Shown here: in pieces, positions 11,592-16,479 of the stretch
Layout of the letters: each line of letters starts with the position of its first letter
How positions within the stretch are numbered: position 1 is the first letter of the stretch
Origin: Sumerlaeia bacterium
GTDB lineage: Bacteria > Sumerlaeota > Sumerlaeia > SLMS01 > JAHLLQ01
Length of the DNA stretch: 64,000 nucleotides
Direction: 5' to 3'
Assembly (NCBI GenBank): GCA_040219255.1
Contig: JAVJSW010000060.1
Location: 64,001 to 128,000, forward strand
Notes under the pieces: generated by a model
What the model was told of the DNA's origin: nothing
What the model saw: only the letters and a program-made list of their open reading frames with translations
The model's database searches: none
Made by a program: the position numbers and the translations under genes

Positions 11592-12152
11592 ATGCTGAGA
11601 ATCATCGCGGGCGAACGGCGCGGCACCAAGCTCCAGACGCTCGAAGGCTCCGCCACCCGGCCCCTGCGCGACCGCGTTCGCGAATCCCTCTTCAACATCC
11701 TCCAGGGCGACGTGCCCGGCGCCAACGTGATGGACCTCTTCGCGGGGTCCGGGGCCGTCGGCCTCGAAGCCCTCAGCCGCGGCGCGCGCCACGCCGCCTT
11801 TGTGGAAGGCGGCGCCGACGCCCGCCGTGTCGTCTCCGCCAACATCGCCAAGATGCGCTACGATGGCCAGAGCCAGGTCGTGGGCGGGATGCTGCCGGGG
11901 GCGCTCTCGGGCGTGAAGGCCGAGGCGGGCGGCTTCGGTCTGATTTTCCTGATGCCGCCCTACCACAGCGGCGCCGGCCAGCAAACCCTCGCCGCCCTCC
12001 CGGCCAGCGGCCTCCTGGCCCCCGACCCCCTGGCCGTCCTCGAGTTGCACAAAGACGAAGCGCTCGACCTCCCGGATTCATGGGAAATCGAGCGCGACAA
12101 GGCCTATGGGATTACGCGGCTGCTGTTCTTGAGGCGCGCGGTGGCTGGCTGA
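11592..12152 (+). CDS. rsmD: 16S rRNA m2G966 methyltransferase
   Basis: LRIIAG, TRP..DRVRESLFNIL, DLFAGSGAVGLEALSRGA, MPPY (DPPY variant), YG near the C-terminus. Confidence 0.92.
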   Translation: MLRIIAGERRGTKLQTLEGSATRPLRDRVRESLFNILQGDVPGANVMDLFAGSGAVGLEALSRGARHAAFVEGGADARRVVSANIAKMRYDGQSQVVGGMLPGALSGVKAEAGGFGLIFLMPPYHSGAGQQTLAALPASGLLAPDPLAVLELHKDEALDLPDSWEIERDKAYGITRLLFLRRAVAG

Positions 12153-12158
12153 AGCTCC

Positions 12159-12821
12159 CTACGGACCGAAACGCACGATGTCGCCGTCGCTGATGGTGCC
12201 GTTGGTGGGGTCGTACTGATGGATCGAGCCCATCGAGGCCATCGGCATCGTCATGATTTCGTAGATGGGCAGCGACCCGCGGCGGTCCACCTCGCGGGCC
12301 ATGGTGCCGAAACGCTGGTCCGGGCCGGTGGAGAGCATGGCCCAGGCGGGCGTGATGGCCTTGCCGGTGTCGGCCATGGCCAGGCTCTCGACGCGGGCGC
12401 GGTAAGTCTGGCGGTTGACTTCGTCCGGGACGTTGGTGGCGTTGAAGTACACGAACGAATGCTTATGATCGGACATCACGACGGGCTTGAAGGTATCGAG
12501 CGGCACGTCGGTCATGTAGGCCACGGGGGTCGTCAGCGTGTAGGGGACGAAGGGCATCTGGCCCATGGGCATGGTCATGATGTTGCCTCGTCCGGCGGCG
12601 TCGAAAACGTTGGGCGGATAGGCGTTGGAATCGACGGCGTAGGCTTCGAGGCCGGTGGCGATGGAGCGCATGTCGGCGGTGACGCGGCTGACCTTGGCGC
12701 GGGTCTGGGCTTCCAGGAAGTTGGGAACCGCGATGGCCGCCAGCACCGCGATAATGGCGACGACGATGAGAAGTTCGATGAGGGTGAACGCGCGGGGGCG
12801 CCGGTGTGTTTGAGCGAACAT
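12159..12821 (-). CDS. prepilin-type N-methylation domain protein with Met-rich motifs
   Basis: RAFTLIELLIVVAIIAVLAAIAVPNFLEAQTRAKVSR class III signal; C-terminal YDPTNGTISDGDI; two IMTMPM motifs and HKH. Confidence 0.9.
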   Translation of the reverse strand: MFAQTHRRPRAFTLIELLIVVAIIAVLAAIAVPNFLEAQTRAKVSRVTADMRSIATGLEAYAVDSNAYPPNVFDAAGRGNIMTMPMGQMPFVPYTLTTPVAYMTDVPLDTFKPVVMSDHKHSFVYFNATNVPDEVNRQTYRARVESLAMADTGKAITPAWAMLSTGPDQRFGTMAREVDRRGSLPIYEIMTMPMASMGSIHQYDPTNGTISDGDIVRFGP

Positions 12822-12923
12822 GAGGGGTAGGTGTTGCCTCCGTAGGCAGGTCGTGGGGGCGCGCGGCCACTGGGGAGCGGCGCGGCGGGGATGGGAGTGG
12901 TGGGTTGTGGGTAAGGCGTGGCG

Positions 12924-12952
12924 GGTCACGGGCGGGACGCCCGTGCTACCTT
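12924..12952. repeat. REP-like palindrome GGTCACGGGCGGGACGCCCGTGCTACCTT
   Basis: 8-bp stem CACGGGCG/CGCCCGTG; identical 29-mer at 48617-48645; variant near 18222. Confidence 0.8.
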
Positions 12953-13425
12953 TAAGCGGCCTGCGGAGGTGGGGGGATGGGGGCGAAGGCTCTGTCGAGG
13001 ATTTGAGAAGAGCGGAAGGAAATAGTGGCCTCGGCGACAAAAGGTTCCGCGAGGTGAAGCCCTTGCCTTGGCGCGAGGAAGCGGAAGCCGAGGGAGCCGG
13101 GGACGGGGGCTTCGGAGCGGGGCGGGGCGCCCTCGCCGCAGGGCATAGCGAGGATGGGCGTGCCGTCGGCGGGCGGGGGCGTTTGGCGCGCCGGGCTGCA
13201 GCAGCAGTGCGGCTGGCCGAATTCGTCGAGGCTGCAATACCCGTTCACCGACCGGCAGCAGGCGCAGCAGACGTTGCTCTCGGGGGTGGGGGGCTCCTCT
13301 CGCGATTCGGCGGCGGCAGTGGGAGGCGCGAAGGCGGGGGAAACGACGATGGCGGCGAACTCGGCCAGTCCGTTGAGGGCGAAGATCGCCAGGAATAGGA
13401 TGGAGTAGAGGCGCTGTTTCATCAT
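12952..13425 (-). CDS. exported Cys-rich protein with Pro-rich C-terminus (DUF2946/CruR/CutF-like leader)
   Basis: N-terminal signal/TM segment; CCACC..C..HCCC..PC; ends RAFAPIPPPPQAA. Confidence 0.7.
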   Translation of the reverse strand: MMKQRLYSILFLAIFALNGLAEFAAIVVSPAFAPPTAAAESREEPPTPESNVCCACCRSVNGYCSLDEFGQPHCCCSPARQTPPPADGTPILAMPCGEGAPPRSEAPVPGSLGFRFLAPRQGLHLAEPFVAEATISFRSSQILDRAFAPIPPPPQAA

Positions 13426-13467: not shown

Positions 13468-14385
13468 ATGGAAAGGCGCGACACGTTGGGGAGCATCTCA
13501 GACGAGCACAATCTGGACCGGACGGTGCTGCGCGTGGGTACGCGCGGGTCGGCGCTGGCCCGCGCCCAGACGGCGCTGGTGGTGGAGGCGCTGAAGGCGG
13601 CGCGGCCGGAATTGCTGATCGAGGAAACGATCATCCGCACCGAGGGCGACCGGCGCCAGGACGTGGCGCTGCGGGAATTCGGCGGCAAGGGCGCCTTCAC
13701 CAAGGAGCTGGAGGTGGCGCTGGCGGAGGGACGGATCGACTGCGCGGTGCATAGTCTGAAGGACTTGCCGACGGCGATGCCCGATGGCCTGGCACTGGGC
13801 GCGGTGATGGCCCGGGGAAACCCGATGGATGTGCTGGTGGCGCGCGAGGAAATCGACCTCGCCACGTTCGAGGGCCTCGCCGGGACGTCGAGCCTGCGGC
13901 GGACGGCGCAGCTCCAATGGAAGCACCCGCACCTGCGCACCGCCGACATCCGGGGCAACGTGCCGACGCGGCTGGAGAAGCTGATGCGGGGGGAATTCGA
14001 CGCGCTGGTGCTGGCGGCGGCGGGGATCGAGCGGCTGGGCCTGGCGGTGCCGTGGATGCGGCCATTCGCGCTGGAGGACATGTATCCGGCGCCGGGCCAG
14101 GGCGCCATCGCGGTGCAGGTCCGCGCCGGCGAGGAGGAAGCCTTTTCCGCCATCCACGACCCGGTGACGGCGGCCTGCGTGGCGGCGGAGCGCGCGTTTC
14201 TGGCGGCGCTCGGTGGCGGATGCCACGCGCCGGTGGGGGCCCTGGGAGAGCACCTCGGCGGCGGCATGTTGGGGATCAAGGGGCGGTTGATGCGCGATGG
14301 CGAATGCCTCGAAGCGCGGTCGGTGGGCGGGATAAATCGCGCCGAAATGATCGGCGAAATGGCGGCGGAGATGTTGGAACGATGA
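13468..14385 (+). CDS. hemC: hydroxymethylbilane synthase
   Basis: LRVGTRGSALARAQT, GGKGAFTKELE, AVHSLKDLP, GTSSLRR, IRGNVPTRL, PAPGQGAI, LGGGC; true start may be slightly downstream. Confidence 0.95.
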   Translation: MERRDTLGSISDEHNLDRTVLRVGTRGSALARAQTALVVEALKAARPELLIEETIIRTEGDRRQDVALREFGGKGAFTKELEVALAEGRIDCAVHSLKDLPTAMPDGLALGAVMARGNPMDVLVAREEIDLATFEGLAGTSSLRRTAQLQWKHPHLRTADIRGNVPTRLEKLMRGEFDALVLAAAGIERLGLAVPWMRPFALEDMYPAPGQGAIAVQVRAGEEEAFSAIHDPVTAACVAAERAFLAALGGGCHAPVGALGEHLGGGMLGIKGRLMRDGECLEARSVGGINRAEMIGEMAAEMLER

Positions 14386-15134
14386 AACATGCGGCGATTG
14401 TGACAGGCGACGAGTCGCCGGAGGACGGGCCCCTGGGCCGGGCGCTGCGGGCGCGCGGGTTCGAGGCGGTGGTGTGCCCGTTGGTGCGGGCTTTTCCGCC
14501 GCACGACGACGGGCCGCTGCGCGAGGCGGTGGCGCGTGTGGGGGAATTCGATTGGGTGGCCTTCACGAGTGCGCGCGCCGTGGCTGCCGTAGCGGAATTG
14601 TGCGGGGGATCGCTCGCCGGTTTGGGCGCGCGGGTGGCCTGCGTGGGCAACGCCACAGCGCGGGCGGTGGAGGAGCGCGGCGGCACGGTGGTAGTCCTTC
14701 CCGTCGACGTGGGAGGCGCCGGTTTGGCCCGCGCGATGGCGGGGGCGGCGGATTTGCGGGGGCGGCGCGTGTTGTACCCTCGAGCGGAGAGCGCCCGGCC
14801 GGACCTGGCGGAGGGACTGCGCGGCGCCGGGGCCGAAGTGGTGGACCCGGTGGCCTATCGCATGGAGCCCGTGCGCGATCACGGCGAATTGGCGCAGGCG
14901 CTGGAGGCTTGGCCGGACGCGGCGGTGCTCTTGTGCAGCGCCTCGGCGGCGGAGGCGCTGGCCGGCTCGGACGTGGTGGCGCGGATGGCGGGGCGAGTGA
15001 TCGGTTCCATGGGCCCAACGACCTCGCGCGCGGCGCGGGCGGTTGGTCTGGAGGTTAGTTTCGAGCCGGAGGAGCGGTCGTTTGCGGGACTGGTGGAGGC
15101 GTTGGAGGAGGTGGCCACGGATGGCCACGGTTAG
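14382..15134 (+). CDS. hemD: uroporphyrinogen-III synthase
   Basis: FDWVAFTSARAV, ACVGNATA, VLYPRAE, VAYR, SMGPTTS; ATGA-coupled to hemC. Confidence 0.88.
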   Translation: MKHAAIVTGDESPEDGPLGRALRARGFEAVVCPLVRAFPPHDDGPLREAVARVGEFDWVAFTSARAVAAVAELCGGSLAGLGARVACVGNATARAVEERGGTVVVLPVDVGGAGLARAMAGAADLRGRRVLYPRAESARPDLAEGLRGAGAEVVDPVAYRMEPVRDHGELAQALEAWPDAAVLLCSASAAEALAGSDVVARMAGRVIGSMGPTTSRAARAVGLEVSFEPEERSFAGLVEALEEVATDGHG

Positions 15135-15464
15135 GGGGGGCGGATTTTTCGGAGATAGGTTTGGATGCGAGGGAGGAAGGGGCCTTGAGAATATGAATTT
15201 TTAGATTGGGCAAAATTGTCGGAATGCGGTGTCTTCTTACTCGGTGAGGAAATGCGGGGGAACCGGGTTCAATCATTCGAGTCCTAATCCGGCACCGACA
15301 GAGCAGTATTCAGAATGGGCATCAAGCGACTCTCCGCTGTAAGAGGGGATGTGCCATTTCCCATCTTCCCACAAATCGATTGAAGCCCCAACCCCAGCGC
15401 TCCTTCCCCGAAAATCAGCCTTCGCCCTCCCATCCGAATCCCAATCCGTGCCCATCCGTGGCTA
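15114..15464. repeat. intergenic element with inverted CCACGGATG-type arms
   Basis: GCCACGGATGGCCACGG (15114-15130, overlapping the hemD 3' end) and ATCCGTGCCCATCCGTGGC (15444-15462); AT-richer interior. Confidence 0.6.
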
Positions 15465-15489
15465 AACCCGACCCCAGGACCCACGCCTC

Positions 15490-16479
15490 ATGACCCCACC
15501 CACGCCCCCTTTTCCCCAGCGCCGCATGCGGCGCCTTCGCCGCACGGAAGCCCTCCGCGCCATGCTGCGCGAAACGCGGCTCAGTGCGAGCCAGTTCGTC
15601 TATCCGATGTTCGCCCGGCCCGGCGGCGGGGTGCGCAATCCGATCTCGTCCATGCCCGGATGCTTTCAGCTCTCCGTGGACGAACTGGTCAAGGACGCCC
15701 GCGTGGCCTTCGACGCGGGGGTGCCGGCGGTGATTCTCTTTGGCATTCCCGAGTCCAAAGACGCCGCCGGATCCGCCGGTTGCTCGGCGGATGGGATCGT
15801 CCCCCGGGCGATCCAGGCGCTCAAGGACGCGCTTCCGGACCTGATGGTGTGGGCCGATGTGTGCCTGTGCGAATACACCGACCACGGCCATTGCGGGCTG
15901 CTGACGGACGCGGGCGAGGTGGATAACGACGCGACGCTGGAGGTCCTGACCCGCGCGGCGCTGGCCTATGCCGAGGCGGGCGCCGACGTCATCGCCCCCA
16001 GCGACATGATGGACGGGCGCGTCGCCGCCATCCGTGCCGGGCTCGATGGCGCCGGGTTCACCCACACCCCAATCGTCAGCTACGCCGCCAAGTACGCGTC
16101 GGCCTTCTACGGCCCCTTCCGCGAGGCCGCCGAGAGCGCCCCCCAATTCGGCGACCGCCGCGCCTATCAGATGGACCCCGCCAACAGCGACGAAGCCCTG
16201 CGCGAGGTCGAACTCGACATCGCCGAAGGCGCCGACATCGTCATGGTCAAACCGGCCCTCGCCTATCTCGACGTCATCCGGCGCGTGAAGGACACGTTCA
16301 ACATCCCCGTCGCCGCCTACAACGTCAGCGGCGAATACGCCATGCTGCACGCGGCGGCCGAGCGGGGCTGGATCGATTACGAGCGCGCCATGATGGAAAG
16401 CCTGACCGCCATCCGCCGCGCCGGAGCCGACATCATCCTGACGTACCACGCGGTCGAGGCGGCGCGGTTGCTGCGGTAG
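15490..16479 (+). CDS. hemB: porphobilinogen synthase
   Basis: [20 protein letters not shown] Zn site, [30 protein letters not shown]. Confidence 0.97.

Follow-up and report, generated by a model that had tools for sequence, protein, structure and literature searches.

A Cys-rich leader ending in prolines and a Met/His-rich pilin form a conserved module of CutF-like anatomy

Introduction

Genomes of the phylum considered here hold dozens of orphan GspG-like pilins of no known role, 48 of them in the present genome. One is encoded in the stretch of 64,000 nucleotides that we analysed (the window), directly behind a small cysteine-rich reading frame that ends in prolines, and this arrangement raises the question of whether the small frame is a leader that sets translation of the pilin and, if so, which signal it reads. 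The sequence-only reading of the locus had proposed the logic of two copper-responsive leaders, CutF of Rhodobacter capsulatus (cutFOG) and CruR of Bordetella pertussis (Bp2923, DUF2946/PF11162), applied to a metal-binding pilin or pseudopilin. According to PMC12992588, arrest peptides commonly precede protein-localisation genes, and the arrest of CruR has been demonstrated; a legend in the CutF report (Fig. 7B) names a pilin signal class among those scored (PMC9973294). In the literature covered, with subscription papers outside its scope, we found no description of the leader family, of the pilin subfamily or of their pairing, and the term pilin is absent from those supplements of PMC9426467 and PMC12992588 that were searched. 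Here we describe the module, its distribution and its predicted RNA switch, and weigh the signals to which it may respond.

Results

The two genes form a minus-strand unit between the divergent hemC (13468, plus strand) and a convergent rsmD-like gene. The leader ORF (12952..13425, 157 aa), of an unnamed Cys-rich, PPP-ending family, is followed by a C-rich spacer of 130 nt (12822..12951; 68 C, 28 G) and by a GspG-like pilin/pseudopilin of a Met/His-conserved subfamily (12159..12821, 220 aa); GC3 is 0.82 in the leader and 0.89 in the pilin, above chance. A minus-strand promoter scan gave no sigma-70-like site, which leaves an internal promoter possible, and a terminator-like hairpin on the minus strand (12060..12095), located after the pilin and within the end of the rsmD-like gene, is a consensus match only, one having been found where 0.7 were expected. 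Another, strong hairpin, directly behind the leader stop (12918..12950, no strand assigned), was considered as a control element and rejected, being a dispersed REP-like palindromic repeat with dozens of copies in this genome (about 65 BLAST pieces; 38 matches at no more than 4 mismatches) and not specific to the switch. An Rfam match to mir-598 (26 bits against 69) was attributed to chance. On the divergent side, 42 nt from the leader start, hemC with a probable hemD and a probable hemB (window 13468-16479) serves ordinary haem synthesis.

The export signal-like helix, Cys cluster and terminal RAFAPIPPPP that had been read from the leader were all borne out. Its hydrophobic stretch covers residues 7-28 (13342..13407, minus strand; 19-residue hydropathy peak 2.24) and is predicted, from hydropathy and from the structural model, to be an export signal or signal anchor; the model (pTM 0.44) places a helix at residues 2-28 and nothing structured beyond it, as expected of a sensor chain. 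Nine cysteines lie at positions 53, 54, 56, 57, 64, 74, 75, 76 and 96, and within this cluster C53-C96 (13138..13269, minus strand) C54, C57, C64, C74, C76 and C96 are at least 90% conserved in an alignment of 64 relatives, as is PPP. The proline run is near-terminal, RAFAPIPPPP being followed by QAA and the stop, and the codons of Pro151-Pro154 (12964..12975, minus strand), the predicted stall site, contain an anti-Shine-Dalgarno (anti-SD) CCTCC at 12969-12965. When the whole genome was screened for ORFs combining a Pro-run tail, a Cys pair and a hydrophobic stretch, 11 were returned, among which the leader was the richest in Cys.

A single-sequence search with the leader recovered only itself, and Pfam and NCBIfam searches gave no family for it; the relatives were found via synteny and profiles. 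A profile search (12-row profile) of the 1.84-billion library yielded 87 representatives, including one repeat protein (P0099) that was counted and left out of the alignment. Members have about ten Cys each and an N-terminal hydrophobic helix, most relatives measure 130-235 aa, and PPP lies within 12 residues of the C-terminus in 74 of the 87. In 61 of 61 relatives the last conserved Cys is 51-58 residues from PPP, while the N-terminal part ranges from 48 to 120, and such a fixed distance beside a variable N-terminus, as in CruR, would be the signature of a chain read on the ribosome. CxxC (here C54-x-x-C57) occurs in 55 of 61 relatives; R-x-P-P near the C-terminus occurs in two of the 61, PPP being invariant or nearly so. 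The DUF2946 (PF11162) profile, a search with which the sequence-only reading had suggested, matched none of 64 family members at E values up to 1; it had no match in this genome either, and a control search gave matches in two of 14 genomes. Excluded before counting were a profile match with internal stops (G015), a second match in G002 where no leader-like ORF lies, a match at a contig end (G023:C181) that may be the 5' portion lacking from the G023 leader, and a match in G001 without the PPP end. This last one is a small Cys-rich exported ORF that precedes an operon of CusB/HlyD-like and ABC components (L123:6233-8285).

The class III signal, the two IMTMPM motifs and the HKH that had been noticed in the pilin are likewise present, with a predicted cleavage site between A11 and F12, E16 in place, and HKH at residues 119-121. 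The N-terminal methylation motif scores above the cut-offs of PF07963 (34.6 against 21.2 bits) and TIGR02532 (32.3 against 16.3 bits); at E values up to 1 the only Pfam matches are N_methyl and a weak T2SSG, with none to DUF1559. In the predicted structure (pLDDT 88) both Met motifs are placed on beta-hairpins. The best structural matches are EpsG (Z 5.9, rmsd 2.6, 94 residues aligned) and PulG (Z 5.5, rmsd 3.4, 112 aligned), both GspG structures of the EpsG/PulG type (PDB 4lw9, 5wda), which rank first and second among 48,161 chains with modest scores; Foldseek returned no match at E 0.001. The protein is thus predicted to fold most like a major pseudopilin of type II secretion systems (T2SS), but its score of 48.8 bits with the GspG equivalog TIGR01710 is below the cut-off of 88.85. 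Compared with GspG, PulG and EpsG, with which it shares the class III signal, it has a longer head with Met-rich hairpins and a stand-alone gene, located outside any T2SS operon and with different neighbours in every genome. The protein is a GspG-like orphan, and it may possibly be periplasmic and not the subunit of a surface pilus.

The Met motifs proved both conserved and specific to the subfamily. M82, M84, M116, H119 and H121 are present in all 24 aligned members, and M89, M174 and M190 in 23 of them; these residues fall in a first Met cluster on a predicted beta-hairpin (M82/M84/M86/M89, 12555..12578), in the invariant M116-x-x-H119-x-H121 (12459..12476) and in a second cluster of M174, M190, M192, M194 and M197 (12231..12302), all on the minus strand. 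The mature pilin has 14 Met among 209 residues (6.7%) and four MxM motifs, whereas each of the remaining 47 ORFs of this genome with a pilin cleavage motif has at most one, and one of them, an unrelated pilin of 141 aa, reaches 6.4% Met. The median Met content is 8.5% for the heads of the subfamily and 2.5% for a set of 20 other pilins; heads are Cys-free in 20 of the 24 members, the present one included. Met and His without Cys are the usual ligand set for periplasmic Cu(I)/Ag(I), as in CusF, SilE and CueO, and the conserved Met/His residues of the pilin are predicted to bind Cu(I).

Close orthologues of the pilin are labelled Candidatus Sumerlaeota, and the Met/His pilin was detected in 10 of 75 genomes of this phylum and in two of 35 genomes of a second one, labelled Candidatus Omnitrophota. 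The leader precedes it, intact as far as assembled, in nine of these 12 genomes, so that the proposed leader-pilin synteny is conserved; G000, G002, G006, G016, G020 and G050 have a complete Cys-rich, PPP-ending ORF directly upstream, the G023 leader has lost its 5' end at a contig edge, and the pair recurs in both genomes of the second phylum and on one metagenome contig. Among the other three, the leader of G046 is frameshifted within the Cys cluster (L091:1215-1850), through assembly error or decay, with its anti-SD pairing intact; in G005 the leader runs off one contig and the pilin opens another, the two ends do not overlap and the link is inferred; and in G021 no leader was found upstream of the Met pilin, which is divergent from msrP (L042:8158-9514). 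As a control, a PPP-ending ORF lies just upstream of one of the 48 pilin-motif ORFs of the present genome, namely this one. The flanking genes are different each time, and the leader-pilin pair therefore travels as a unit. No known copper gene was adjacent in the Met-pilin neighbourhoods scanned, and no TonB-dependent receptor stood next to the leader in the leader neighbourhoods listed.

The leader family is wider than this pairing, occurring in 18 of 75 genomes of the first phylum (12-row profile) and six of 35 of the second (61-row profile), and 22 of the 23 leader loci whose downstream DNA is visible or inferred have a pilin no more than two genes away. The gene that follows the leader in these 24 genomes is the Met pilin in 11 (inferred in G005), a secreted LamG-like protein in eight, with a His-rich pilin next in seven, a Met-rich FG-GAP/ASPIC protein in three, each time with a pilin behind it, and a plain pilin in one; one locus is cut by a contig end. 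Modules of leader, LamG protein and His-rich pilin, exemplified by L060:8153-9647, L122:2335-3840 and relatives, were found in G018, G022, G053, G058, G070, G071, G072 and G083, with a contig-cut one in G003; the LamG cargo itself was detected in eight of 75 genomes. It has four invariant His and a His at its predicted mature N-terminus, which we take to be a likeness to the His brace of the CopC/YcnI import proteins; by sequence, no solved structural relative was found. The FG-GAP modules, in three genomes of the second phylum (L119:2678-4998, L120:2537-4958, L121:5833-8360), encode secreted, Met-rich FG-GAP/ASPIC-UnbV proteins. The comparative case for a metal signal rests chiefly on a single leader family heading three unrelated cargos, each of them rich in Met or His. 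A short C-terminal tail that runs from Ser/Val to a final Trp is common to the LamG and FG-GAP cargos and may be a sorting signal for dedicated pilins. In G031 the leader stands between two similar pilins, neither of them Met-rich (L044:6932-8722), and in G070 a related pilin lies just upstream of the leader.

Folding of the RNA predicts how a stalled ribosome could act on the pilin. Codons Pro153-Gln155 pair over 10 bp with the region of the pilin SD (GGAGG, 12841-12837) in both the minimum free energy and the centroid structure (z -2.37), the 3' arm of the helix (12837..12847, minus strand) holding this SD at 14-15 nt from the ATG. The rare codon CCT stands first or second in the final Pro triple, and thereby creates CCTCC, at 14 of 17 loci and at five of six held-out loci; the combined 19 of 23 compares with 94 of the 319 Pro triples of this genome and with an expectation, on local codon use, of about 4 in 16. 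When the leader end was blocked, the energy needed to open the SD fell by a mean of 1.99 kcal/mol, by more than 1 kcal/mol at 10 of the 17 loci and by 3.1 kcal/mol here, against 0.19 in 43 control gene pairs, all drawn from one genome, with kin loci not being independent. The held-out gains were -0.06, 2.05, 0.66, 3.33, -0.82 and 3.70, and with seven of the 17 loci and three of these six under 1 kcal/mol, ten of 23 gain little. At the present locus blocking leaves in place a local hairpin that costs 5.9 kcal/mol, and the SD-ATG spacing of 14 nt is equalled or exceeded in four of 43 controls. Cognate duplexes were more stable than permuted ones (-11.6 against -10.25 kcal/mol), a secondary measure given that the start of G006 was mis-set.

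The spacer between the leader and the downstream gene, 130 nt here, varies from 40 to 208 nt in 23 loci. Its C/G ratio of 2.43 is reached by 7% of controls and exceeds 2 in only three of 17 loci, and a Rho site therefore seems not to be common to them. Since the Pro codons hold the anti-SD, a stall likely switches pilin translation on, as in CutF, and the data point to control of the ribosome-binding site, of the CutF type, rather than to Rho termination of the CruR type. The RNA evidence gives the stall as the ON state, not whether metal causes or relieves it.

The genomic context was examined for copper and for oxidants. The present genome encodes a prepilin peptidase, a Cu-ATPase and two heme-copper oxidases, and it has eight secretin matches. 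Among 50 COX1-positive genomes 18 have the leader and among 25 COX1-negative ones none, a kin-structured distribution in which whole families are without both; the link of the leader to heme-copper oxidases is a lifestyle association. MsrP exceeds its cut-off in six of 10 Met-pilin genomes against four of 65 others (p 0.002 against four of 40 COX1-positive ones), kin again not being independent, and no msrP match was found in the present genome (92% complete). Multicopper oxidase is not enriched, being found in one of 10 Met-pilin genomes.

Discussion

The leader-pilin module is real and conserved, and it is CutF-like by anatomy and by predicted RNA logic; what is new is the cargo, a probable metal-binding pseudopilin, together with the sister modules. 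The presence of a leader of predictable mechanism before one pilin subfamily suggests a specific function for that pilin, namely metal handling by its head. In addition, nascent-chain metal sensing would extend to an unnamed family of leaders that Pfam does not cover, with a compact switch whose anti-SD is formed by the stall codons themselves.

The comparison with CutF (PMC9973294, bioRxiv 10.1101/2025.02.05.636593) shows a small first gene with an export signal, predicted in the present case, a Cys motif and a C-terminal PPP in both cases, and RNA pairing, here predicted, that shields the downstream SD and would be opened by a stalled ribosome. Features by which CutF-like leaders are recognised recur, namely PP in the last 15 residues and a co-oriented gene within 1000 nt; RNA shielding of the downstream SD is predicted, with little or none of it at 10 of the 23 loci. 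The leader differs in its length, 157 aa against the limit of less than 150 given in PMC9973294, in having no DUF2946 match, in having about ten Cys where CutF has one CxxxC and two more, in placing the anti-SD mostly within its Pro codons and not in an intergenic stem-loop, and in its cargo, a class III-signal pilin instead of a Tat multicopper oxidase. With CruR (PMC9426467) it shares the position as an upstream ORF, CxxC, a long spacer, a poorly structured product and a fixed spacing from Cys to the stall site, but it has PPP instead of RAPP, a stall motif 51-58 residues beyond the last Cys (and, in the present leader, about 95 beyond CxxC) instead of 45, a C-rich spacer that is not conserved and a cargo that is not a TonB-dependent transporter. 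The original appeal to CutF/CruR logic is sustained in the anatomy and in the predicted RNA switch, but DUF2946 membership is not, and the RAFAP of the leader does not amount to a conserved RAPP.

We consider it probable that a stalling leader sets translation of the pilin, the core that several readings of the signal share. For the signal itself, our tentative preference, held with somewhat less than even confidence and by analogy with CutF, is that copper would induce, prolonging the stall and turning the pilin on. The observed basis is the conserved two-gene order with its Cys, PPP and Met/His residues. The N-terminal helix would take the nascent chain into SecYEG, and the fixed 51-58 residues would span the ribosome tunnel and the translocon, so that the Cys cluster would have just emerged into the periplasm as PPP enters the peptidyl-transferase centre; the leader would likely sense periplasmic copper or a similar soft metal before its release from the ribosome. 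Metal binding would block disulfide folding and the associated pulling force, as inferred from CutF, and prolong the pause; the paused ribosome is predicted by folding to cover the CCUCC of the Pro codons and free GGAGG, and pilin translation would rise. The pilin, cleaved by the prepilin peptidase, may stay in the inner membrane or join a periplasmic endopilus, and may hold or hand on Cu(I)/Ag(I) through its Met/His sites. Such sites recall the extracytoplasmic, Met-rich, Cys-free surfaces of SilE, CusF, the Met-rich domain of CueO (PMC5008109, PMC11494321, PMC9302797) and MrpX (PMC4436054), but no relation in sequence or fold to these proteins was found, and here the sites are on the head of a membrane-anchored, potentially polymerising pilin.

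The anti-SD geometry is also compatible with the opposite, CruR-like sign, as the stall is ON under both: copper scarcity would stall the ribosome, copper would release it, and a starvation pilin would scavenge copper for heme-copper oxidases, with Rho perhaps acting in the spacer. The confinement of the leader to COX1-positive genomes suits this alternative, as does the LamG cargo, which begins with His after its predicted signal peptide, presumably like the import proteins CopC and YcnI. Its other support, the C-rich spacer of the present locus, is shared by three of 17 loci only, RAPP is absent while PPP and the export helix match CutF, and no TonB-dependent receptor adjoins the leader in the neighbourhoods listed; we regard the alternative as unlikely, if still worth weighing.

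Slightly less credible, in our judgement, is a switch in which oxidation of the periplasm (HOCl, ROS or the disulfide state) is sensed through the Cys cluster and the Met-rich pilin is a sacrificial scavenger recycled by MsrP. The precedent is MrpX, a periplasmic Met-rich HOCl scavenger that is recycled by MsrP (PMC4436054), and both the enrichment of MsrP and the leaderless pilin of G021, divergent from msrP, agree with it. However, CusF, a copper chaperone, is a further repair substrate of MsrP during copper stress (PMC9302797), and because of this repair the co-occurrence of MsrP fits copper too; it fits either an oxidant scavenger or a Met-based copper protein that needs repair. The present genome moreover gave no msrP match, the Met positions and the invariant HxH in a folded head suit ligands better than bulk scavenging, and the LamG cargo is His-rich and Met-poor.

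It is improbable that the leader acts as a stable partner protein of the pilin, metallothionein-like and anchored in the membrane, with ordinary translational coupling of the two genes and no regulated stall. About ten Cys are more than CruR or CutF needs, a pilin is nearby in 22 of 23 loci and a terminating ribosome would melt the helix too; yet the terminal prolines are the most invariant part and their distance from the last Cys is fixed, the chain is predicted to be largely unstructured, three unrelated cargos are all headed by it and its Pro codons are biased towards the anti-SD. A SecM-type monitor of export or pilus-assembly capacity, without metal input, would suit cargos that are pilins and secreted proteins, but it is very improbable, leaving six conserved Cys, the Met/His-rich cargos and the presence of such a leader at one of 48 pilins unexplained.

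We further speculate, as a proposal that we rate as doubtful, that these phyla employ swappable, ligand-specific pseudopilins, with a metal-sensing nascent chain that would decide which pilin is made. Under copper stress, or when copper is needed, a Met/His pilin would form a Cu(I)-lined filament, periplasmic or on the surface, that captures or shuttles the metal, and the sister modules would each use a dedicated pilin for the export of His- or Met-rich metal-binding proteins with a common C-terminal tail. If so, metal handling in these bacteria would be based on pilins and controlled at translation.

Two further pilins of these genomes stand in suggestive surroundings. In G070, some 2 kb away from the leader module, nikR directly precedes a further pilin (L064:11135-12351), possibly a nickel-regulated one. 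In G005, a second pilin heads an operon of a secreted protein, an MFS transporter and a haem oxygenase (L035:751-7403), near a periplasmic binding protein, and may belong to an iron/haem module.
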